Assembly (NCBI RefSeq): GCF_022846255.1
Contig: NZ_AP025682.1
Source: Escherichia coli
GTDB taxonomy: Bacteria; Pseudomonadota; Gammaproteobacteria; Enterobacterales; Enterobacteriaceae
DNA length: 64,000 nucleotides
Direction: 5' to 3' (one strand)
The notes beneath the pieces are model-generated. The model did no database searches and was not told the DNA's origin. It saw only the letters and a program-made list of their open reading frames with translations. Shown one piece after another: positions 1-31,958 of the stretch; position 1 is the stretch's first letter; each line of letters begins with the position of its first letter. The position numbers were made by a program, and so were the translations under genes.

Positions 1-893
1 GCAAACAACAGGGGTGGTATAAACAATAAGAGAAAAAGTTCAGGATTGAATTCCACATGCAGACCAAATATAGGCTGGGCCAGTACTGCACCAGCGGCAA
101 TCTGGATTAAAGGAAGTGGTATCTGGACAGGAGACAGACGTGTAAGCACGCTGGTTAATGATACTACCAACGTAAGAATTAAAATTGTTAAAAGTATTTC
201 CATATAATAAACAGGCTTCCTCATTCATAAATAATGGATATTATTAATTTAATTTCATAAAAAGCGCTCTGGTTAGCACTTAACGTTAATCATTAATCAC
301 TGCGTTCACTCACATGATCAGAAGGAACCCAGTAAAATAAGTTTTCAAGTTGATAACAAATTCACCATGTGAATATTTACTGCCTTTCCCCGTTGTAACG
401 AATCGTCCGTTACTCTCTGATTTCCTTGCCGAACAAGTTATTTAGTGAATGACGGCTTTCTTTTAATATCAGCATGAATTATACGTTCAGCAAATGTATT
501 AAATCAGCACTAAATAAATTTAATGGATACCACCATTCTGCGTCAACACTTAGTTTTTATCTGTATTGACAATTTAAAATGGCCGCAGCCAAATTAATGA
601 TTTTATTTTTAATAAATCATCAACAGAATAAGAGATCTTATCAGCGGTAACTAAACTCATCAGAGGGTGTTCCTTGTAACGTCATGCATTACATAACTTT
701 AAAATATACAATCAAAAAATGCATTAAAAACCGATTAAAAGCAGCAAAGTATTACCCGGTGCACGAATTTATGATACATCTGCAGCCATTCTGCTATTCG
801 CTGACTACTTTTCAGTAATGACTGCTTTTTCATAAGGTTTCACTCCCGACAACAATGTTGGAGTTTTATTTTCTTAGCATGGAGTAAGTAAAG

Positions 894-1865
894 ATGAGCA
901 AAATAATAGCGATGCTAATTACTGTCAGTACCTTTTTTTTACCGTCAATAATCCAGGCAAAACCTATTTCAATAAAAGTTGCCTATGAAAATAACCCTGG
1001 AGAACCCCTGGATGTAGTCATGCGTTACTGGGCAGACCTATTAAATAAAAAAAGTAATGGCGAAATAACACTTGCGCTCTATCCCAGCTCCCAATTGGGA
1101 TCAAAACAGGATGTCACCGAGCAAGCCATGATGGGCATGAATGTCATAACCTTGAGTGATGTGGCCTTTCTTGCCGATTATGAACCCGATTTGGGGATTT
1201 TGTTTGGACCGTATCTGACTGACGATCCGCAAAAACTGTTCAAAATATATGAAAGCGACTGGTTTAAACAAAAAAATGAAAGTCTGAAGAAAAAGGGAAT
1301 TCATGTGGTAATGAATAATTATCTCTATGGCACTCGACAGATTATTTCGAAAAAACCCATTCGCACCGTTGACGATCTCGCAGGTTTAAAAATTCGCGTT
1401 CCTAATAACGTCATGCAAATAAAAGCCATTCAGGCGATGGGGGCAACACCAACTCCCATGCCATTAGGCGAAGTTTATCCCGCATTAACCCAGGGCGTTA
1501 TTGACGGCGTAGAAAACCCAATTTCAGTGCTGCAAGGGCAAAAACTGTATGAGCAGGCAAGATATCTGACAATGGTTAACTACCTGACAAATACCTCAGT
1601 GTGGATAGGTGGTGAAGCCTTCTTTAGCACCCTTTCACCAGAACAACTGGAGATGATCCACCAGACCGGCTATGAAGCGGGTGTCTATAGCCAGAAACTC
1701 ACTCTTGAGCGTGATGCCGAAATGTTGAAAACCATGCAGGCAGCCGGCGTCGAAGTGATCTATCCCGATACTGGACCATTCCAGAAGAAAGCACGCGAAG
1801 TTTACTCTCAATTCCCGGAATGGACACCAGGTCTGTACGAAACCATTCAACAGCAACTGCAATAA
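894..1865 (+). CDS. TRAP transporter periplasmic substrate-binding protein (DctP family)
   Basis: 323 aa ORF with N-terminal signal-peptide-like segment; GGAG RBS upstream; followed by small and large TRAP permease genes in canonical P-Q-M order. Confidence 0.75.
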   Translation: MSKIIAMLITVSTFFLPSIIQAKPISIKVAYENNPGEPLDVVMRYWADLLNKKSNGEITLALYPSSQLGSKQDVTEQAMMGMNVITLSDVAFLADYEPDLGILFGPYLTDDPQKLFKIYESDWFKQKNESLKKKGIHVVMNNYLYGTRQIISKKPIRTVDDLAGLKIRVPNNVMQIKAIQAMGATPTPMPLGEVYPALTQGVIDGVENPISVLQGQKLYEQARYLTMVNYLTNTSVWIGGEAFFSTLSPEQLEMIHQTGYEAGVYSQKLTLERDAEMLKTMQAAGVEVIYPDTGPFQKKAREVYSQFPEWTPGLYETIQQQLQ

Positions 1866-1928
1866 GCATTAATGCTCAGCGTCCTGCCTCATCTCTCTTA
1901 GGCAGGACACGCACTAACAGGAGGTTTC

Positions 1929-2402
1929 ATGCGTCTTTTTGGCAAAGTGGCAGAATTTAGTGCTGCCTTTGCGCTATTCGTTCTGGTTGTGGTGACAATT
2001 GGAGCGGTATTTATGCGTTATTTCATCGGCCAACCGCTTCAATGGACAGAAGAAATGTCGGGAATGCTGATGATTTGGGTGGTGATGTTAGGTGGAGTGG
2101 TGGCGGAACGTGACAGGGCGCACCTGACCATTCCCTTCCTGATGGAGATGCTTCCAGGCAAACTCAGGCGTGTTATTGCAGTACTGGTCGCCCTTCTCTC
2201 CATCGCACTGCTGCTTTATATGGCCTGGCTGGGCTACCGACTAGCCGAAATGGCGCAGTTTAAAGTGACACAAATTCTGAAGGTTTCCTGGTTCTGGATC
2301 GATCTGGCGGTCCCTGTCGGCGCACTGGCAACGGCTATTTATACCCTCTACTGGTTAATAAACGATACAAAACAATCCGATAGCGGAGACAAAATGCAAT
2401 GA
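1929..2402 (+). CDS. TRAP transporter small permease (DctQ family)
   Basis: 157 aa hydrophobic protein with about 4 TM segments; AGGAGG RBS; stop overlaps start of downstream large permease. Confidence 0.7.
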   Translation: MRLFGKVAEFSAAFALFVLVVVTIGAVFMRYFIGQPLQWTEEMSGMLMIWVVMLGGVVAERDRAHLTIPFLMEMLPGKLRRVIAVLVALLSIALLLYMAWLGYRLAEMAQFKVTQILKVSWFWIDLAVPVGALATAIYTLYWLINDTKQSDSGDKMQ

Positions 2403-3670
2403 GTTGGTTATTGATTATTCCGCTAATGATCGTCTGTTTGTTTCTCAACATTCGGGTCTATCTGGCGATGTTTATTGGCATCATCGCTTACTTTTTATTC
2501 TTCTCCAGCGTACCGATTGAAATTGCCGTGCAAAGACTAATCGCGCCAACGCAAAGCCCATCATTGCTGGCCATTCCGTTTTTTATCTTGCTAGGCACAC
2601 TAATGAGCTACACCGGCATTGCCGAACGCATCCTGCACATTGCCAACGTTCTGGTGGGGAAAATGCGCGGCGGACTGGGCGTGGCAAACATTCTCGTCAG
2701 CACCATGATGGGCGGCGTCAGCGCCTCTAACCTTGCTGACGCGGCGATGCTGTCGCGCATGATGGTGCCGGAGATGGAGCGTAAAGGCTACAATCGCGCG
2801 TTTGCCGCCGCCATTACCGCTGGTGGCTCGTTAGTCACCCCGATCATACCGCCTGGAATAGCCCTGATTATTTACGGTCTGGTTGCCGACGTCTCTATCG
2901 GAAAAATGTTTATCGCCGGACTGGTACCTGGTTTGCTATGCGCAGTCGTACTGATGTTTACCGTCTACCTTGTCGCCCGCAAAACTAACGCTAAACCCTC
3001 GCGTGAAAGCTGGCCTACGGGCAAAGAGGTGGTGTTCTCGCTGGGACAGGCCTGGCCTGCGCTGTTCCTCATTTTTGCTGTGGTGGGTGGTATTCGCGCT
3101 AACATTTTCACCCCAACAGAAGCAGGTGCAGTAGCGGTGCTAATCGTGCTGGCGATTGGCTTTTTTATCTATCGTGAAATGCGGATTTCTCATGTCGTCA
3201 AAGCATTGGGCGAAACGGCACGCGCAACCGCATCGGTGATGCTGGTAATCATGGCCAGCGCCGCATTGGGATGGATTTTCTCAATGGAACATGCTGGTGT
3301 CGCAGTGGCGAATTTTGTGACTTCGCTGACCGAAAACAAATACATGTTCCTGTTGATTATCAACATATTGCTGCTGACGCTGGGGATGTTTCTGGAAGGA
3401 AACGCCATTTTGCTGATCCTGGTACCACTATTAAAACCGGTGGTCGAACACTTTGGCATCGATCCGGTGCATTTTGGCATCATCATGATCTTCAACCTGT
3501 CGATTGGCGCATTCACGCCACCGGTAGGTACCGTGATGCTGCTGGTATGTAATATCACGCAAGTTTCGGTGGGAAATTTCTTTAAACAATCCCTGCCCCT
3601 ACTGGCGGCTCTACTGTTAATGCTAATGCTGGTGACATATATCCCGGCGATTTCACTGTTCCTGGTTTAA
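2399..3670 (+). CDS. TRAP transporter large permease (DctM family)
   Basis: 423 aa polytopic membrane protein; ATGA start/stop overlap with DctQ-like gene indicates translational coupling. Confidence 0.8.
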   Translation: MSWLLIIPLMIVCLFLNIRVYLAMFIGIIAYFLFFSSVPIEIAVQRLIAPTQSPSLLAIPFFILLGTLMSYTGIAERILHIANVLVGKMRGGLGVANILVSTMMGGVSASNLADAAMLSRMMVPEMERKGYNRAFAAAITAGGSLVTPIIPPGIALIIYGLVADVSIGKMFIAGLVPGLLCAVVLMFTVYLVARKTNAKPSRESWPTGKEVVFSLGQAWPALFLIFAVVGGIRANIFTPTEAGAVAVLIVLAIGFFIYREMRISHVVKALGETARATASVMLVIMASAALGWIFSMEHAGVAVANFVTSLTENKYMFLLIINILLLTLGMFLEGNAILLILVPLLKPVVEHFGIDPVHFGIIMIFNLSIGAFTPPVGTVMLLVCNITQVSVGNFFKQSLPLLAALLLMLMLVTYIPAISLFLV

Positions 3671-3680
3671 TAATAAAAAC

Positions 3681-3703
3681 GCCGGATGAAATACTCATCC
3701 GGC
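3681..3703. terminator. Stem-loop between convergent dctM-like and tsr genes (GCCGGATGA / TCATCCGGC, 9-bp stem)
   Basis: Perfect 9-bp inverted repeat with 5-nt loop sitting between two convergent stop codons; flanks only moderately A/T rich. Confidence 0.45.
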
Positions 3704-3712
3704 ATCATTACG

Positions 3713-5377
3713 TTAAAACGTTTCCCAGTTCTCCTCGCTATCTGCCACGGCCATTTTGCGCGGCGTAGCTGGCGTCACGGTTTTTACCACAGCCGATGCT
3801 TCACGCTGCTGTTGCTGCTGTTGCTGAATCCGGAACACTGCCACTGCTTCGGTCAGGCGACTGGCCTGCTCTTCCAGCGCGGCGGCGGCGGCGGCAGATT
3901 CTTCCACCAGCGCGGCGTTCTGTTGAGTTACCCGGTCCATCTCAGCAACCGCTAAGCCAACCTGATCGATACCACGGCTCTGCTCATCAGAAGCAGAAGC
4001 AATTTCGCCCATAATGTCCGTCACGCGGGTCACGGCACTGACAATCTCCGCCATTGTTTCCCCTGCGCTTTCGACCAGCGTAGAGCCAACATCTACTTTC
4101 CCCACCGAGTCTTCAATCAGGCTTTTAATTTCACGAGCCGCCTGAGCGCTGCGCTGGGCCAGATTACGCACTTCACCCGCGACCACCGCAAAACCGCGCC
4201 CTTGCTCACCCGCGCGCGCTGCTTCAACCGCCGCGTTCAAAGCCAGAATATTGGTCTGGAAGGCAATGCCGTCAATTACGCTGATAATATCGGCGATTTT
4301 CTGCGAACTGGTGGAGATATCGCGCATAGTCTGCACCACGTTATCTACCACTTTGCCGCCGCGTTGCGCCGTTTCAGAAGCACTTAACGCCAGGTGGCTG
4401 GCCTGGCGCGCATTTTCGGCGTTCTGCTTCACCGTTGCGGTCAGTTGCTCCATGCTGGCTGCCGTCTCTTCCAGCGAAGCGGCCTGTTGCTCGGTGCGCG
4501 AAGAGAGATCGTTATTGCCGGTAGCGATTTCGCTGGCACCGCTATAGATGGCATTGGCCCCGTTGCGCACATCACCGACGGTACGCATCAGCTCTCCCTG
4601 CATATGGCGCAAACTCTCAGCCAGTTGCCCCATCTCATTAGAGCCATCCACCTCAATCGGTTTCACCAGATCGCCGCCTGCAATATGACGAATGCTGTCA
4701 ATCAGGCGATTCATTGGCGCTACCAACGAGGCTTTAATACCGAACCAGACGGCGAAGATGACCGCCAGTACGACGATCATCACGCCCACCAGAATCCACA
4801 TCGCCTGGCTGTAGGAGGCATTGTTATCGCTGACGGCGATATCATAGAGCCGATCGTTTTGCTCCATGTAAGCCACATACTGCTTCTCGAAACCGTCCTG
4901 ATATCCCTGGGTCGGCTGATCAAAGAACTCGTTGATTTTGCCTGCACCTAACAGTTGGATCAGCTCCGCCAGCGCATTGTGATAAATATCGTAATTACGT
5001 TTGATCTCTGCCGCTGCGGCGGTGCTCTGACGCGGGTCACGCGGCAACGCTTCGTAATCCGCCCAGTTTTTTTCCGCCTGTTTCAGCGAAATACTGGCAC
5101 TCTGCATCAGCTCAGCAACGGTTGAACCGCTACCAATATTATTCTGATCCATCATGTAGCGGATACCCGCGCGGTTGAGGGTGTTACGCGTCTGCAACAA
5201 CGCGACCCAGCTGCCATTCAGCGTGGATTGCTGCTGGCGAATGGTTTGTAAAACAGTGAAATTTTCTTTGTCATTCTTTAAGGCATTAAAGAACAGACCG
5301 CCTGATGTCAGTTGTAAAAGGCCAAAAACGGCCAAAACCAGCAGTAAGCTGGTCACGATCTTGATACGTTTTAACAT
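3713..5377 (-). CDS. tsr: Methyl-accepting chemotaxis protein I (serine chemoreceptor)
   Basis: 554 aa; matches recalled Tsr sequence essentially throughout, including 2 TM segments, HAMP, methylation helices and C-terminal NWETF pentapeptide. Confidence 0.95.
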
Positions 5378-27503: not shown

Positions 27504-30500
27504 GCAACGACATTACAAAAGAGCTCAACCTGCAAAACGACATCATCGCCCAGATGGTGGAAAAAGGCTGGATTGTCGGCAAAGGTGACGGCTACGACCG
27601 GGAACGTGCGCTATACGCACAAGACGTTCTGCACTTTGTGCAAACCACCCAACCGCAAGAGTGGGAGAAATTCGCCCGCGTTTACCCCAACGACAACGAA
27701 CGCCATTTCCTCGACGCGCTGGTTGCGCAGTTAAAAAAAGCCGACAGCAACGCCACCGACATCCAGACGCGCACCTGGGGTACGCTCGGCGTACTTCGCC
27801 ACGGACTGAAAATCCGCAATGCCCGTTTTTCGCTGTGTCAGTTTAAACCGGAACATAATCTCAACCCGGAAACGCTGGCGCGCTATCAGCAGAATATCTG
27901 CCGTATCGTGCCGGAACTGGTCTACAGCCCATATGCCTCAAATAGCGTCTTTGCAGAAACGGGCGTGAAAGCCAAAAAATGGCGCATCGACCTGGTGCTG
28001 TTTATCAACGGCCTGCCAATTGCCACGCTGGAGCTGAAATCCGAATTCAAACAGGCGGTGCAGAACGCCATTGCGCAGTACAAAAAGACCCGCCTGCCGA
28101 AAGATCCCGCCACCAATAAACCGGAACCGCTGCTGACCTTTAAGCGCGGCGCGCTGGTGCATTTTGCCGTCAGCCAGTATGACGTCTTTATGACCACCAA
28201 ACTCGCGGGTGACAGCACCTTCTTCCTGCCGTTTAACAAAGGCACCAAAGACGGAGGCGCAGGCAACGAGATCCCCGAAGATACCCACCGCTACGCCACC
28301 GATTATCTGTGGAATGAAGTGCTGCTGCCGGACAACTTATTAAAAATCCTCGCCAGTTTTGTCCATTTGCAGATTGAAGAAAAAGAGGACTGGAACGGGC
28401 TGAAAGCGAAGAAAGAGAGCCTGATTTTCCCGCGTTATCACCAGTGGGATGTGGTCAACAAACTGCTGGAGGCCGCAACGGTCGAAGGCACCGGCCATAA
28501 ATACCTGATCCAGCACAGCGCCGGTTCCGGTAAATCGAACTCCATTGCCTGGACCGCCCACCAGCTTTCTCGTCTGTACGACGTGAACGGGGAAAAACAG
28601 TTCCACTCCGTTATCGTGGTGACGGACCGCACGGTGCTGGACGACCAGCTTCAGGACACCATCTGGCAGTTCGAACATGCCGACGGCGTGGTCGGGCGCA
28701 TCAATAACAGAGAGGGCGACGGCTCTAAATCGGAAAAGCTCGCCAACGCGCTGGAAAACTCGCAGCCGATAATCATCGTCACCATCCAGACATTCCCGTT
28801 CGTGCTGAAAGCCATCGAAAACAGCGTCAGCCTGAAGCAGCGTAAATACGCGGTGATTGCCGACGAAGCACACTCCTCGCAGAGCGGTTCTACCGCCCGT
28901 CAGCTTAAAGAAGTGCTGATGAGCGAAGAAATGGATGATGACGTGGTACTGTCGTCAGAAGATATCCTGGATGCGACCATTGCCGCCCGGAAAGGCAGCA
29001 GTAACCTGAACTACTACGCCTTTACCGCCACGCCAAAATCCAAAACCCTCGAACTTTTTGGTCGCCGCCCACGTCCCGATGAACCGGCGTCAAAAACCAA
29101 TAAACCTGAGGCCTTCCACGTCTACTCCATGCGCCAGGCAATCGAAGAAGGCTTTATCCTCGATGTGCTGAAAAACTACACCAACTACAAAGTGGCGTAT
29201 CAGTTGTTGCAAAAGCTGGAAGACAAAGACCGCGAGGTCGATAGCAAACGGGCGAAGATTAAGCTCAACCAGTGGGTGACACTGCACGACCACAATATCT
29301 CGCAGAAGGTGAAGGTGATTGTGGATCACTTCCGCAAACATGTGATGCACCTGCTTGGTGGCCAGGCCAAAGCGATGGTGGTCACCAGTTCACGCAAAGC
29401 CGCTGTGCGCTACAAGCTGGCGTTTGATAAATACATTAGCGAGAACAATTACCAGAAAATCAGCGCGATGGTGGCATTTTCCGGGGAAGTTGAATTCCAG
29501 GAAGGCGACCATAACAGCCTGGCATTGTTAAACCAGAAATTTACTGAAATAAACATGAACCCCGGCCTGAAAGGGCGGGATATGCGCAAAGCCTTCGACA
29601 GCGACGATTATCAGGTGATGTTGGTCGCCAATAAATTCCAGACCGGTTTTGACCAGCCAAAGCTGTGCGCAATGTACGTGGATAAACCCCTCGGTGGCGT
29701 CGAGTGTGTCCAGACGCTTTCCCGCCTGAACCGCACCTATCCGGGCAAAGCGGAATCAGGCACTTTTGTCCTCGATTTTATCAACGATCCGGGCGAGATC
29801 CTCAAGGCATTCCAGCCCTATTACCAGACGGCGGAACTGACCGATGTCAGCGATCCGCAGCAGGTATTCGATCTGTTTGAAAAACTGCGCGCCACGCAGA
29901 TTTTCCAGTGGCATGAAGTCGAGCAGTTCTGCGAGGCATACTTCATCAAAAATAAATCGAATGCGGCGATCAGTAATATCTGCAAACCGGCGGTAGAACG
30001 CTGGAAAAAGCGTTATCTGATGGCGATAGACGCCTATTTGACCGCCAAAGAGATGTTCGAGCGCACCAAAAAAACGGGCGATACGGTGTTAATCACCAAT
30101 GCGGAAAACAGTTTTAAAGCCTGTAAGCAGGAGAAAGATCGCCTGGAAATATTCAAAAAGGATCTCGGCAGCTTTGTTCGCTTTTATGAATTTATGTCGC
30201 AGATCGTCGAGTACGATGACAAAGATCTGGAAAAACTGAGCCTGTTTGCCCGCCATTTGCGTCCGCTGCTGCATGAACAACGTCTGGAAGAGGATGAGGT
30301 TGATCTCAGTAACGTGGAGATCAGTCACTATCGCTTATCGAAAATCCATGAACAAGATTTACGCTTACAGGAAGAAACACCTGACTATACGCTGGATGCA
30401 AGTAATGATATTGGTACGGCAAAAGCGAAAGATAAAAAAGAGGAGTTTTTATCGCAGGTGCTTTCTCGGATGAATGAATTATTCATTAGCGACCATTTGA

Positions 30501-30763
30501 CCGACAAAGATATGATCAGCAATGCTTTTTCGGTGTATAACAAAATAACTGAAAATGAAAATGTTATGACACAAATTAATAATAATCCGCCAGAACAAGC
30601 TATTCTTGGTGATTTCCTCCAGGCAGTTGATAATGCTGTAATGGACAGTAATGACGCTCGACAAGAATTTATGTTGCAATATTTATCCGATCCAGTTCGG
30701 GCAAAGGGCTTTGCTTATCTGATGTTTGATATGCTAACGGGGAAAATTGCTTTGCCAACATGA
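27500..30763 (+). CDS. hsdR: Type I restriction enzyme R subunit (endonuclease/helicase)
   Basis: 1087 aa; N-terminal PD-(D/E)xK-like LELKSE region, Walker A GSGKS, DEAH box VIADEAHSSQ; ATGA overlap with hsdS. Confidence 0.9.
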   Translation: MSNDITKELNLQNDIIAQMVEKGWIVGKGDGYDRERALYAQDVLHFVQTTQPQEWEKFARVYPNDNERHFLDALVAQLKKADSNATDIQTRTWGTLGVLRHGLKIRNARFSLCQFKPEHNLNPETLARYQQNICRIVPELVYSPYASNSVFAETGVKAKKWRIDLVLFINGLPIATLELKSEFKQAVQNAIAQYKKTRLPKDPATNKPEPLLTFKRGALVHFAVSQYDVFMTTKLAGDSTFFLPFNKGTKDGGAGNEIPEDTHRYATDYLWNEVLLPDNLLKILASFVHLQIEEKEDWNGLKAKKESLIFPRYHQWDVVNKLLEAATVEGTGHKYLIQHSAGSGKSNSIAWTAHQLSRLYDVNGEKQFHSVIVVTDRTVLDDQLQDTIWQFEHADGVVGRINNREGDGSKSEKLANALENSQPIIIVTIQTFPFVLKAIENSVSLKQRKYAVIADEAHSSQSGSTARQLKEVLMSEEMDDDVVLSSEDILDATIAARKGSSNLNYYAFTATPKSKTLELFGRRPRPDEPASKTNKPEAFHVYSMRQAIEEGFILDVLKNYTNYKVAYQLLQKLEDKDREVDSKRAKIKLNQWVTLHDHNISQKVKVIVDHFRKHVMHLLGGQAKAMVVTSSRKAAVRYKLAFDKYISENNYQKISAMVAFSGEVEFQEGDHNSLALLNQKFTEINMNPGLKGRDMRKAFDSDDYQVMLVANKFQTGFDQPKLCAMYVDKPLGGVECVQTLSRLNRTYPGKAESGTFVLDFINDPGEILKAFQPYYQTAELTDVSDPQQVFDLFEKLRATQIFQWHEVEQFCEAYFIKNKSNAAISNICKPAVERWKKRYLMAIDAYLTAKEMFERTKKTGDTVLITNAENSFKACKQEKDRLEIFKKDLGSFVRFYEFMSQIVEYDDKDLEKLSLFARHLRPLLHEQRLEEDEVDLSNVEISHYRLSKIHEQDLRLQEETPDYTLDASNDIGTAKAKDKKEEFLSQVLSRMNELFISDHLTDKDMISNAFSVYNKITENENVMTQINNNPPEQAILGDFLQAVDNAVMDSNDARQEFMLQYLSDPVRAKGFAYLMFDMLTGKIALPT

Positions 30764-30828
30764 AAATACGTTGATAGCCGGGGTCGCACTTTCTACCCCG
30801 GCCATATTATTTGCAATAAGGAATAGCT

Positions 30829-31542
30829 ATGCTGAAGATGATTAAAGATTTTAAATTCAAAAAATACATTAAAAAATTACGTGAAGAAGGTTTGTTTTTT
30901 TATGTTTCTTTCGGGTTTATATTAACATTGTTAATGGAAGTTGATGACCGATTACCGTACTATCTTCAACAAGACTTCTTTTTTGATACACTTATAGGAT
31001 TTATGCCAATCAATATACTCTTTGTTTTGATTTGCATAAATGCATTTTTCATTTTCGTCCACACACTTATTTCACCTTATAAAGGTCAAAGAGTTGGTGA
31101 GAAATTTCTCTCTGAACTTGATAAAAGAACGCAACAAATTGGCTTTATTATTTCATTCATATGTTTTGGCATGACATTGTTTTGTGCTCTGGCGTGGTTG
31201 CTGTTTTTTGAGATGAATACTGAAAGTTACTACGCAAAATATACATTAGATTTTTTGGCTGTTTTTATCATTATGATTATGTTTTCTTCAGCAGTTAATC
31301 CAGTCATGAGAAGAATATTCCAAAAAATGAAGGAATCGGACTCACATGGAAATTCAAAAATAATTCTTATAATTATAATCATTACATTATTGCTACTATT
31401 ACCAATTGCGTGCATTATCAATAAAAATAAAACAATTGAAATCAATATTAAGAAAGAAACTTATCAGCAAATAAAAGAAAAAACAAAGATGAAACCAGAA
31501 GATTATATCAAAAAATTGATTGCTGATATTAAATTCAACTAA
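30829..31542 (+). CDS. Hypothetical polytopic membrane protein (AT-rich, orphan)
   Basis: 237 aa; about 5 predicted TM helices; very AT-rich with atypical codon usage; AAGGAA RBS; no similarity recognised to any named family. Confidence 0.55.
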   Translation: MLKMIKDFKFKKYIKKLREEGLFFYVSFGFILTLLMEVDDRLPYYLQQDFFFDTLIGFMPINILFVLICINAFFIFVHTLISPYKGQRVGEKFLSELDKRTQQIGFIISFICFGMTLFCALAWLLFFEMNTESYYAKYTLDFLAVFIIMIMFSSAVNPVMRRIFQKMKESDSHGNSKIILIIIIITLLLLLPIACIINKNKTIEINIKKETYQQIKEKTKMKPEDYIKKLIADIKFN

Positions 31543-31545
31543 TAT

Positions 31546-31572
31546 CTATATGTACCCTAGTTTCTTCCTAGG
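31546..31572. repeat. AT-rich near-perfect inverted repeat (TATATGTACCCTAG-N7-CTAGGTACATATA)
   Basis: 13-14 bp arms with one-base bulge immediately after the membrane-protein stop; not followed by a T-run on the plus strand. Confidence 0.4.
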
Positions 31573-31617
31573 TACATATAAAAAGTTAATATCCTGATTT
31601 ATTCTCAACATCCCCCC

Positions 31618-31782
31618 TCACTCCACATCTTCCCTGCGTAACCCAATATCCCTCAACCGCTCATCACTCATCTGCTGTAACACCCGCCGGGCCTGCATTT
31701 GCCGCCGCCAACGCCTCACTGCCTGCCAGAGTTGTACGATGCCAGTAAACGGCGCTTTGGCTTTGTTTTCGTGAAATTCCAT
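31618..31782 (-). CDS. yjiS: DUF1127-family small protein
   Basis: 54 aa (MEFHENKAKAPFTGIVQLWQAVRRWRRQMQARRVLQQMSDERLRDIGLRREDVE) with GAGGAGG RBS; below the 60-aa cutoff of the ORF track; divergent from yjiR. Confidence 0.7.
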   Translation of the reverse strand: MEFHENKAKAPFTGIVQLWQAVRRWRRQMQARRVLQQMSDERLRDIGLRREDVE

Positions 31783-31958
31783 CTGCTGCCTCCTCATCTT
31801 TCAGAGGCTTCATCATCCGTCTTCTGGCAGTTCACAATACAGATGCAAATATTAGTTTTATTTAACATACAGACAGGTTAAAACAGCATCTGCATCCGGT
31901 TTTTTAGCCTCATCTGTACCGGTTTTTCTCTCTGTATGGTCCAAATAAGGAATACAGC

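Follow-up and report, generated by a model that had tools for sequence, protein, structure and literature searches.

The genes for L-galactonate use in Escherichia coli K-12 have been described as two divergent operons, lgoRT and lgoD (PMC5934670). The lgo genes are induced on L-galactonate, and YjjM/LgoR is the regulator of the pathway (PMC5934670; bioRxiv 10.64898/2026.05.20.726482). An experimentally defined operator for LgoR was found neither in PMC5934670 nor in PMC6055005. A pangenome study has reported that lgoT never co-occurs with nhaK, siaP, or siaT in E. coli, and this was discussed as gene-gene avoidance (PMC10769857). TRAP systems with dual specificity for L-fuconate and L-galactonate are given as documented in the passage of PMC5507952 that cites Vetting et al. 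(2015).

The order of genes in K-12 is lgoR, a 214-bp spacer, lgoT, and tsr. In Citrobacter amalonaticus (three genomes; loci L004, L005, and L051), lgoD on the minus strand and lgoR on the plus strand are followed by a spacer of 171–172 bp, dctPQM on the plus strand, a gap of about 600 bp, and tsr on the minus strand; lgoR and dctPQM are direct neighbours and point the same way, as lgoR and lgoT do in K-12, and the locus is without the antiporter. The TRAP-type E. coli locus studied here has the order opgB, lgoD (minus), lgoR (plus), antiporter (minus), intergenic interval, dctPQM (plus), and tsr (minus). In contrast to K-12, lgoR is 2.3 kb away and a convergent antiporter gene stands between. 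The TRAP operon occupies the position that lgoT has in K-12, and the initial annotation was right to regard it as foreign to the K-12 tsr neighbourhood. The window is the whole 64-kb stretch of E. coli DNA that was analysed; coordinates are positions in it, and numbers of the form L0xx denote comparison loci that were fetched. The flanking genes and the parts of the interval are:

1–203, minus strand: 5′ end of a gene for a CPA1-family Na+/H+ antiporter, 'nhaK'-like, 550 aa (PF00999); the window begins inside the gene
204–893, no strand assigned: whole divergent intergenic region, 690 bp, 33.2% GC
204–722, no strand assigned: AT-rich part assigned to the antiporter cassette, 519 bp, 31.9% GC; absent from the Citrobacter lgoR-dctP locus
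722–772, plus strand: block matching the start of the K-12 lgoR-lgoT spacer, 82% identity over 51 bp
723–893, plus strand: ancestral spacer between lgoR and the transporter genes, 171 bp, collinear with the Citrobacter spacer of 171/172 bp
881–896, plus strand: dctP Shine-Dalgarno sequence GGAG (881–884) and start codon (894–896)
894–3670, plus strand: TRAP operon, with dctP at 894–1865, dctQ at 1929–2402, and dctM at 2399–3670; convergent tsr lies beyond dctM

The non-coding interval is bounded by the minus-strand ATG of the antiporter gene at 203 and the ATG of dctP at 894. The antiporter start (ATG at 203–201 on the minus strand, the reverse complement of CAT at 201–203; product MEILLT...) is the same as that annotated by RefSeq for the 550-aa Na+/H+ antiporter of strain 95-3322, which is 99.5% identical. 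An AT-rich non-coding gap at 230–893 had been described in the initial annotation; the gap exists, but its left edge has to be moved to 204. The boundary at 230 was probably set by an ORF at 40–228 (minus strand), which overlaps the antiporter start out of frame. The reading of the gap as non-coding was borne out: no ORF of at least 12 codons is intact across the four Escherichia lineages that were aligned, and no RefSeq feature lies under the interval in any of the listed genomes.

Among 5426 complete E. coli genomes, 856–859 carry the interval, as a single chromosomal copy, and 866 carry dctP. The interval, the antiporter, and the TRAP operon thus travel together in E. coli. Carriers include the ExPEC strains APEC O1 and NC101 as well as STEC strains of O145 and O111. 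Nothing similar to the interval was found in a search of plasmids, the one "plasmid" match being a mislabelled chromosome record of 4.9 Mb, and blastn against E. coli genomes and plasmids detected no homologue of 204–722 elsewhere.

Comparison with the two described layouts divides the interval into two parts. K-12 and the TRAP-type locus align from opgB to 16 bp past lgoR; K-12 positions 4059–4109, beginning at the lgoR stop codon, then align a second time, with window positions 722–772. Both of these blocks precede genes of the pathway transporter. Beyond the block, K-12 continues into the promoter region of lgoT (an MFS gene), whereas the window continues into TRAP-specific sequence. The Citrobacter spacer aligns with 723–893 over its full length, almost without gaps, at 55% identity (shuffled sequences gave 31 ± 8%, with a maximum of 42%). 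It resembles the window in its length, in opening with the same repeat, there directly after the lgoR stop, and in a similar Shine-Dalgarno sequence and start, and differs from it in having no cassette. Clear homology to an intact intergenic region of known function in related strains had been named in the initial annotation as the observation that would speak against its reading of the gap. Such homology was found for 723–893 (Citrobacter lgoR-dctP) and for 722–772 (K-12 lgoR-lgoT), but the homologous spacers are themselves putative control regions, and 204–722 has no counterpart in Citrobacter.

The antiporter cassette is bracketed by a 21-bp imperfect direct repeat, with 17 of the 21 positions identical and the copies 2342 bp apart. 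The left copy, ATTAAGTACAGATTAAAAACA, follows directly after the lgoR stop, and the right copy, ATTAAAAACCGATTAAAAGCA, is at 723–743. Apart from the antiporter gene and its 3′ flank, the bracketed 2342 bp hold nothing but positions 204–722. Spacer homology and the bracketing repeat together indicate that the interval is composite, 723–893 being ancestral and 204–722 having come with the antiporter cassette. The cassette event is old, since N50 and E4742, although deeply diverged, have both repeat copies. No terminal inverted repeats and no recombinase gene were found in the cassette. A transposable element or MITE was considered and rejected: terminal inverted repeats and transposase are absent, the sequence is single copy, and the flanking repeat is 21 bp long and imperfect. 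The repeat may possibly have arisen as a 21-bp target duplication, through integration guided by similar sequence in the donor, or when the antiporter and TRAP module replaced lgoT in one step and the native operator of lgoT stayed in place. Of the two copies, the left is closer to the repeat of K-12 and the right to that of Citrobacter, which hints at donor-guided integration or one-step replacement of lgoT rather than target duplication.

Conservation was assessed in an alignment of four Escherichia lineages, namely the window, L002 (a 94.7%-identical locus of STEC type), N50, and Escherichia sp. E4742, which represent only two deep clades. Between the two clades, identity at four-fold degenerate sites of the flanking genes is only 39–63%, and neutral sites are therefore near saturation. 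Across most of 307–480 and 555–676 only 13–40% of the columns are invariant, at or below the neutral level. Islands reach 50–90% invariant columns, with 50% at 350–379, around the palindrome, and five of them stand out in the cassette part (204–248, 278–313, 360–374, 495–547, and 677–722). The elements of the interval are:

204–248, minus strand: island at the antiporter translation start, 73% of columns invariant, with an SD-like GAGGA at 222–218 and an out-of-frame ATG at 228–226
278–313, minus strand: conserved island with two copies of TTAATCA and GTTCACTCAC; candidate regulator site or leader element
360–374, no strand assigned: 15-bp palindrome ATTCAC-N3-GTGAAT, kept with changes in N50 and E4742; candidate transcription-factor site in the predicted leader
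495–547: promoter-like island, conserved in the four lineages
517–546, minus strand: sigma-70-like promoter pointing at the antiporter gene, with −35 TTGACG (546–541), an 18-nt spacer, and −10 TAAATT (522–517)
677–722, plus strand: right end of the cassette, with CATAACTT ... ATATACAAT invariant and 63–70% of columns invariant; directly upstream of site T
723–743, plus strand: site T, ATTAAAAACCGATTAAAAGCA, candidate LgoR operator; direct repeat with 11-bp phasing, and right copy of the cassette-flanking 21-bp repeat
846–870, plus strand: weak hairpin CCGACA-ACAA-TGTTGG followed by a T-run; 6-bp stem with three G-C pairs, 24 nt before the dctP ATG

Both hexamers of the promoter-like site are identical in the four lineages, while the 17–18-nt spacer between them has diverged. 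They are the two longest invariant strings in 495–547, and TTGACG/TAAATT is the only promoter-like site of the intergenic region with identical hexamers in all four lineages. Transcription of the antiporter gene from this site is predicted to start near 510 and would pass through a leader of about 307 nt; the length of the leader is nearly constant across the four lineages (327, 327, 324, and 326 nt). The SD-like GAGGA lies 15 nt from the antiporter ATG. In the clade of the window, no Shine-Dalgarno sequence stands at normal spacing and an out-of-frame upstream ORF overlaps the start; the antiporter may be poorly expressed. The palindrome and the TTAATCA repeats were compared with the consensus sites of CRP, Fur, ArgR, ArcA, and Cra, and no convincing fit was found. 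About 16% of complete E. coli genomes, ExPEC and STEC strains among them, have this accessory antiporter, and the conserved hexamers are a candidate for its promoter.

On the dctP side the most conserved element is site T, the best conserved 30 bp of the interval, in which 90% of the columns are invariant across the four lineages, a level equal to that of flanking coding sequence. Its pattern is ATTAAAA-N4-ATTAAAA, two units in 11-bp phase. The lgoD-lgoR intergenic region carries ATTAAAA(G/C)CCGATTTAAAA on the opposite strand, towards lgoD and 19–32 nt upstream of the lgoR start; TRAP-type E. coli, N50, K-12, and Citrobacter all have this copy. Each of the complete TRAP-type loci that were fetched (L001, L002, L003, and L076) contains two exact matches to the 14-mer ATTAAAANCCGATT, one upstream of dctP and the other between lgoD and lgoR, on the opposite strand. 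K-12 and Citrobacter each have it once, in the lgoD-lgoR region, and it was absent from the 68 other fetched loci. By our own estimate, a pattern of 13 specified bases would be expected by chance about 6e-4 times per 18.8-kb locus. As ATTAAAA-N4-ATT(T)AAAA, the motif is present both in window positions 722–772 and after lgoR in K-12, and also between lgoD and lgoR. Its recurrence at lgoD-lgoR and upstream of lgoT or dctP extends over E. coli, Citrobacter, and other Escherichia lineages. Three to six phased copies precede the dctP orthologues (81–83% identical) of Affinibrenneria and Edaphovirga; lgoR does not lie within 5 kb of dctP in these two, though the motif is present there.

As the motif is shared with the lgoD-lgoR region, site T is probably an LgoR site. 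The protein binding it would most likely be the pathway regulator, with LgoR as the candidate that we prefer and UxuR/ExuR as the alternative. Regulators of the FadR subfamily of GntR proteins usually bind palindromes; dyad symmetry was not found in site T, which is a direct repeat with 11-bp phasing. The phased A-tracts of the site could also be mere bent or UP-like DNA. Site T is offered here as a candidate operator for LgoR, a regulator that is still listed as uncharacterised.

A search of 723–893 for a conserved sigma-70-like promoter that could serve dctP found none. Cut off from the lgoR promoter by the cassette, dctPQM would start from an activator-dependent promoter or from 677–722, which may supply promoter or UP-like function for dctP. 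RNAalifold gave no consensus structure for the 171-bp spacer (−0.47 kcal/mol), and a riboswitch- or attenuator-like fold was rejected since no conserved fold was found in it. A hairpin similar to that at 846–870 can be drawn by eye in the Citrobacter spacer but is missing from the RNAalifold result.

The product of dctPQM is a probable sugar-acid transporter of the L-galactonate/L-fuconate type standing in for lgoT. The nearest solved structure to its binding protein is 4ovt (E = 7e-147), the ligand of which we take to be L-fuconate. Genes for LgoD-like dehydrogenases adjoin dctP orthologues in Azospirillum, Lampropedia, Brucella, and Pseudomonas, and the neighbourhood in Azospirillum also includes an LgoR-like regulator. 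In E. coli, lgoT and the nhaK/TRAP genes are alternative cassettes with a common regulatory motif, and either set fills the one slot that lies between lgoR and tsr. With one slot shared, the mutual exclusivity of lgoT and nhaK/TRAP follows from position, and probably also from equivalent function.

It is likely, in our judgement, that 204–893 is a composite two-way regulatory region without a gene of its own, the right part carrying site T and the left part derived from the antiporter cassette. A regulator, preferably LgoR, would bind site T and so control dctPQM. The cassette part looks for the most part like unconstrained AT-rich DNA of the composition preferred by H-NS, interspersed with short conserved blocks that resemble regulator sites, and TTGACG-N18-TAAATT on the minus strand would serve the antiporter gene. 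Apart from its informative history, the interval is a control region of the ordinary intergenic kind.

AT-rich xenogeneic promoter regions silenced by H-NS form a general class, and the interval shares with them a GC content of about 32% in a genome of 50% GC, horizontal acquisition, and a position between divergent genes. The GC content of 204–893 compares with 49.3% across the 64 kb, where no more than 0.8% of 690-bp segments are equally AT-rich, and A/T tracts number 19 per kb against 12 per kb; 204–722 is 68% AT against 51% for the window, as expected of an H-NS-bound xenogeneic region. This left part is also foreign to the Citrobacter-type locus, and most of it evolves approximately neutrally. 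It is conceivable, though we lean against it, that the interval is simply horizontally acquired AT-rich DNA that H-NS coats and silences, with conserved patches that are incidental and neither flanking unit specifically regulated. Invariant hexamers around a diverging spacer are nevertheless hard to call incidental, as is a site T that is 90% conserved and has a second copy at lgoD-lgoR, and the adjoining antiporter gene differs from the silenced class in its ordinary GC content of 48%. From its composition, binding of H-NS to 204–722 appears plausible, and silencing would be compatible with the two-way regulatory model. The predicted leader raises another possibility, that its approximately 307 nt act as a cis-regulatory RNA (sensing pH, Na+, or temperature, for example) that controls the antiporter. 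The promoter is conserved far upstream of the gene, leader length has hardly changed through several indels and about 40% divergence, a long-range 8-bp helix (UCAUUCAC / GUGAGUGA) shows two covarying pairs, and the conserved palindrome can form a hairpin. We consider such an RNA unlikely, however, because the RNAalifold consensus is very weak (−11 kcal/mol over 336 columns; folding term −6.9), evolution is neutral over most of the leader, covariation between two clades amounts to one event, no Rfam match was obtained, and no comparably placed promoter was found for the antiporter homologues of Klebsiella, Limnobaculum, Edaphovirga, and L077. Across sets of four to seven sequences, no conserved covarying structure was detected beyond the weak leader helix.

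The two-way regulatory reading also has to be weighed against proposals that place a gene, living or dead, in the interval; gene decay and a small RNA, like an H-NS-silenced promoter region, had been suggested in the initial annotation. The interval is unusually long, the cassette has clearly moved from another context, and antiporter homologues elsewhere face various other genes across intergenic regions of 510–750 bp, all of which would suit the remnant of a decayed gene, e.g., that of a regulator, or the leading gene of a different transporter operon with which the antiporter was once paired. A six-frame Pfam scan gave a best E of 0.13, which is meaningless, and tblastn with proteins from the neighbourhoods of related loci (DctP-353, GntR, Rep3, ParG, LgoT, LgoR, GhxP, and a downstream oxidoreductase) returned only chance-level matches; the best of these, to a GntR C-terminus over 720–803 (E = 0.03), was judged a chance match inside the conserved block. 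With blastn no related sequence was found elsewhere in E. coli genomes or plasmids, and there is no long interrupted reading frame, all of which makes gene decay very unlikely. A small RNA or small protein encoded in the interval seems even harder to credit, despite some suggestive signals. Seven promoter-like sites were found where 4.3 were expected, a hairpin with a T-run lies at 395–413, and folding z-scores fall below −2.5 at 405–504 (plus strand, −3.0) and 505–629 (minus strand, −3.5 at 530–629), with a borderline value at 780–879 (minus strand). A 36-aa ORF was also predicted by gene callers for this intergenic region on L078, a near-identical contig of E. coli, but no ORF of 12 codons or more remains intact across the clades. 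The segments with low z-scores fall within the least conserved sequence, and the strongest of them overlaps a 10-bp deletion in L002. Consensus structures are negligible, no conserved terminator was found on either strand, and the lone terminator-like hairpin in the AT-rich part is not conserved in N50. A search of 1–1500 against Rfam 15 at E ≤ 10 gave five chance-level matches (E 1.7–7.9), far below gathering scores.

Relatives from Salmonella, Dickeya, and Brenneria that match YjcE in length are about 59% identical to the antiporter. A link to YjcE is suggested by the length of the antiporter, by these relatives, and by a chimera at the yjcE position in L073. The nearest relatives outside Escherichia are 76–77% identical. 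In Klebsiella sp. I138 and Limnobaculum xujianqingii (loci L070, L074, and L075) such a relative faces a TRAP dctPQM operon across 703–751 bp, beside a GntR/FCD regulator. The TRAP system there is, however, unrelated in detail (a 353-aa DctP with 26% identity to DctP of the window), and the intergenic region shows no similarity beyond the antiporter start; a 70-nt element conserved among those loci is absent from the window. Homology of the interval with the antiporter loci of Klebsiella, Limnobaculum, Edaphovirga, and L077 was likewise rejected past the coding start, and a weak 30-nt match to the site T area (E = 0.046) in the intergenic regions of antiporter homologues was discarded on inspection. 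Contig L078 was set aside as an independent pairing of antiporter and DctP, since its DctP fragment (99.3% identical) and intergenic region (98.6% identical) show it to be this very locus of E. coli.

TRAP transporters are Na+-coupled, and an adjoining Na+/H+ antiporter that recycles Na+ would be a sensible pairing. We infer such a functional pairing of Na+ extrusion by the antiporter with Na+-coupled uptake by the TRAP transporter. A bolder proposal, which we regard as improbable, is that the two make up a mobile 'sodium-cycle' module, put together on more than one occasion; the operator-like 21-bp repeat would have been the recombination site through which the cassette was placed, and the leader of about 307 nt, conserved in length, would be a new cis sensor tuning Na+ extrusion to the use of the transporter. 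With respect to such a module, the antiporter is accompanied by an lgo-type TRAP system in Escherichia and by an unrelated one in Klebsiella sp. I138 and Limnobaculum. The antiporter homologue of Edaphovirga lies beside plasmid-type par and rep genes. On another contig, an antiporter homologue adjoins a gene whose product, judging by its N-terminus, is presumably an enzyme of the mannonate-dehydratase/enolase type.

A published analysis of the E. coli pangenome described 'avoidance' between lgoT and nhaK/siaP/siaT/dctM (PMC10769857). This avoidance corresponds to alternative cassettes that fill one and the same slot, flanked by lgoR and tsr (whole locus; window 1-5377), an account not mentioned in the consulted passages of that article. 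The antiporter cassette at this locus is bracketed by a 21-bp operator-like repeat, the left copy of which lies outside the window, in the comparison locus from a TRAP-type E. coli (L001):

L001 7232-7252, left repeat copy (21 bp, operator-like), downstream of lgoR

With lgoR and the antiporter gene converging on it from either side, this copy is now an 'orphan': there is no obvious promoter at that position for LgoR to control, should it bind there.

A different arrangement of antiporter and lgoR was found in an E. coli assembly (GCA_015160575.1) and in a metagenome scaffold:

L073 6001-7653, 550-aa antiporter gene followed by lgoR (E. coli assembly GCA_015160575.1)
L079 866-2518, 550-aa antiporter gene followed by lgoR (metagenome scaffold)

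The gene order in L073 is ghxP, antiporter gene (in the yjcE position), lgoR, lgoD, and opgB. Compared with the window's antiporter (5' end of the gene at window 1-203), the L073/L079 protein is chimeric, with YjcE-like residues 1-300 sharing about 60-70% identity and residues 301-550 sharing 90-100%. The 170-bp spacer downstream of the chimeric gene matches at 168 of 170 positions. The sequences suggest that the two antiporter paralogues recombined, giving a large inversion, unless the arrangement is an assembly artefact.

The antiporter translation start (window 204-228, minus strand) differs among Escherichia lineages. Genes of the window's clade lack a normally spaced Shine-Dalgarno sequence (GAGGA is 15 nt away from the ATG, upstream on the minus strand), and a 62-codon out-of-frame ORF from an upstream ATG at 228 crosses the start codon. 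The N50 and E4742 lineages have GGAG or GGGG 7 nt ahead of the antiporter ATG, and their equivalent upstream ORF is just 6 codons long. On the basis of these differences in spacing and ORF length, antiporter translation may differ between the lineages.

Variation was also detected on the dctP side. In Escherichia sp. E4742 the 7-nt sequence TCTCCAG is tandemly duplicated just upstream of the pre-dctP hairpin (L076 around 3330-3345, corresponding to window 838-845), so that the 5' arm of the hairpin is present twice. The match of strain MS20657 (NZ_CP082077.1) to window 150-950 comprises 800 bases, not 801, and no TRAP binding-protein gene is annotated under it; dctP is possibly frameshifted in this genome.

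Other antiporter loci share a 70-nt element that is absent from the window:

L070 5611-5680, 70-nt element (position 315-384 of extracted upstream segment)
L074 5388-5457, 70-nt element (position 416-485 of extracted upstream segment)
L077 693-762, 70-nt element (position 102-171 of extracted upstream segment)

The element is about 80% conserved across the three, with the core CCATACAAGAATGTTTGT. In Klebsiella sp. I138 and Limnobaculum it lies upstream of a TRAP operon with a 353-aa DctP, and in the third contig (L077) upstream of the gene adjoining the antiporter. The neighbouring GntR/FCD regulator probably has its operator region here.

The AT-richest segment of the window, at about 30300-31900 (minimum 27.5% GC in 690-bp windows), falls in the hsdR/hypothetical protein/yjiR-yjiS area. 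Only 114 of 5426 E. coli genomes contain the whole 2.6-kb stretch.
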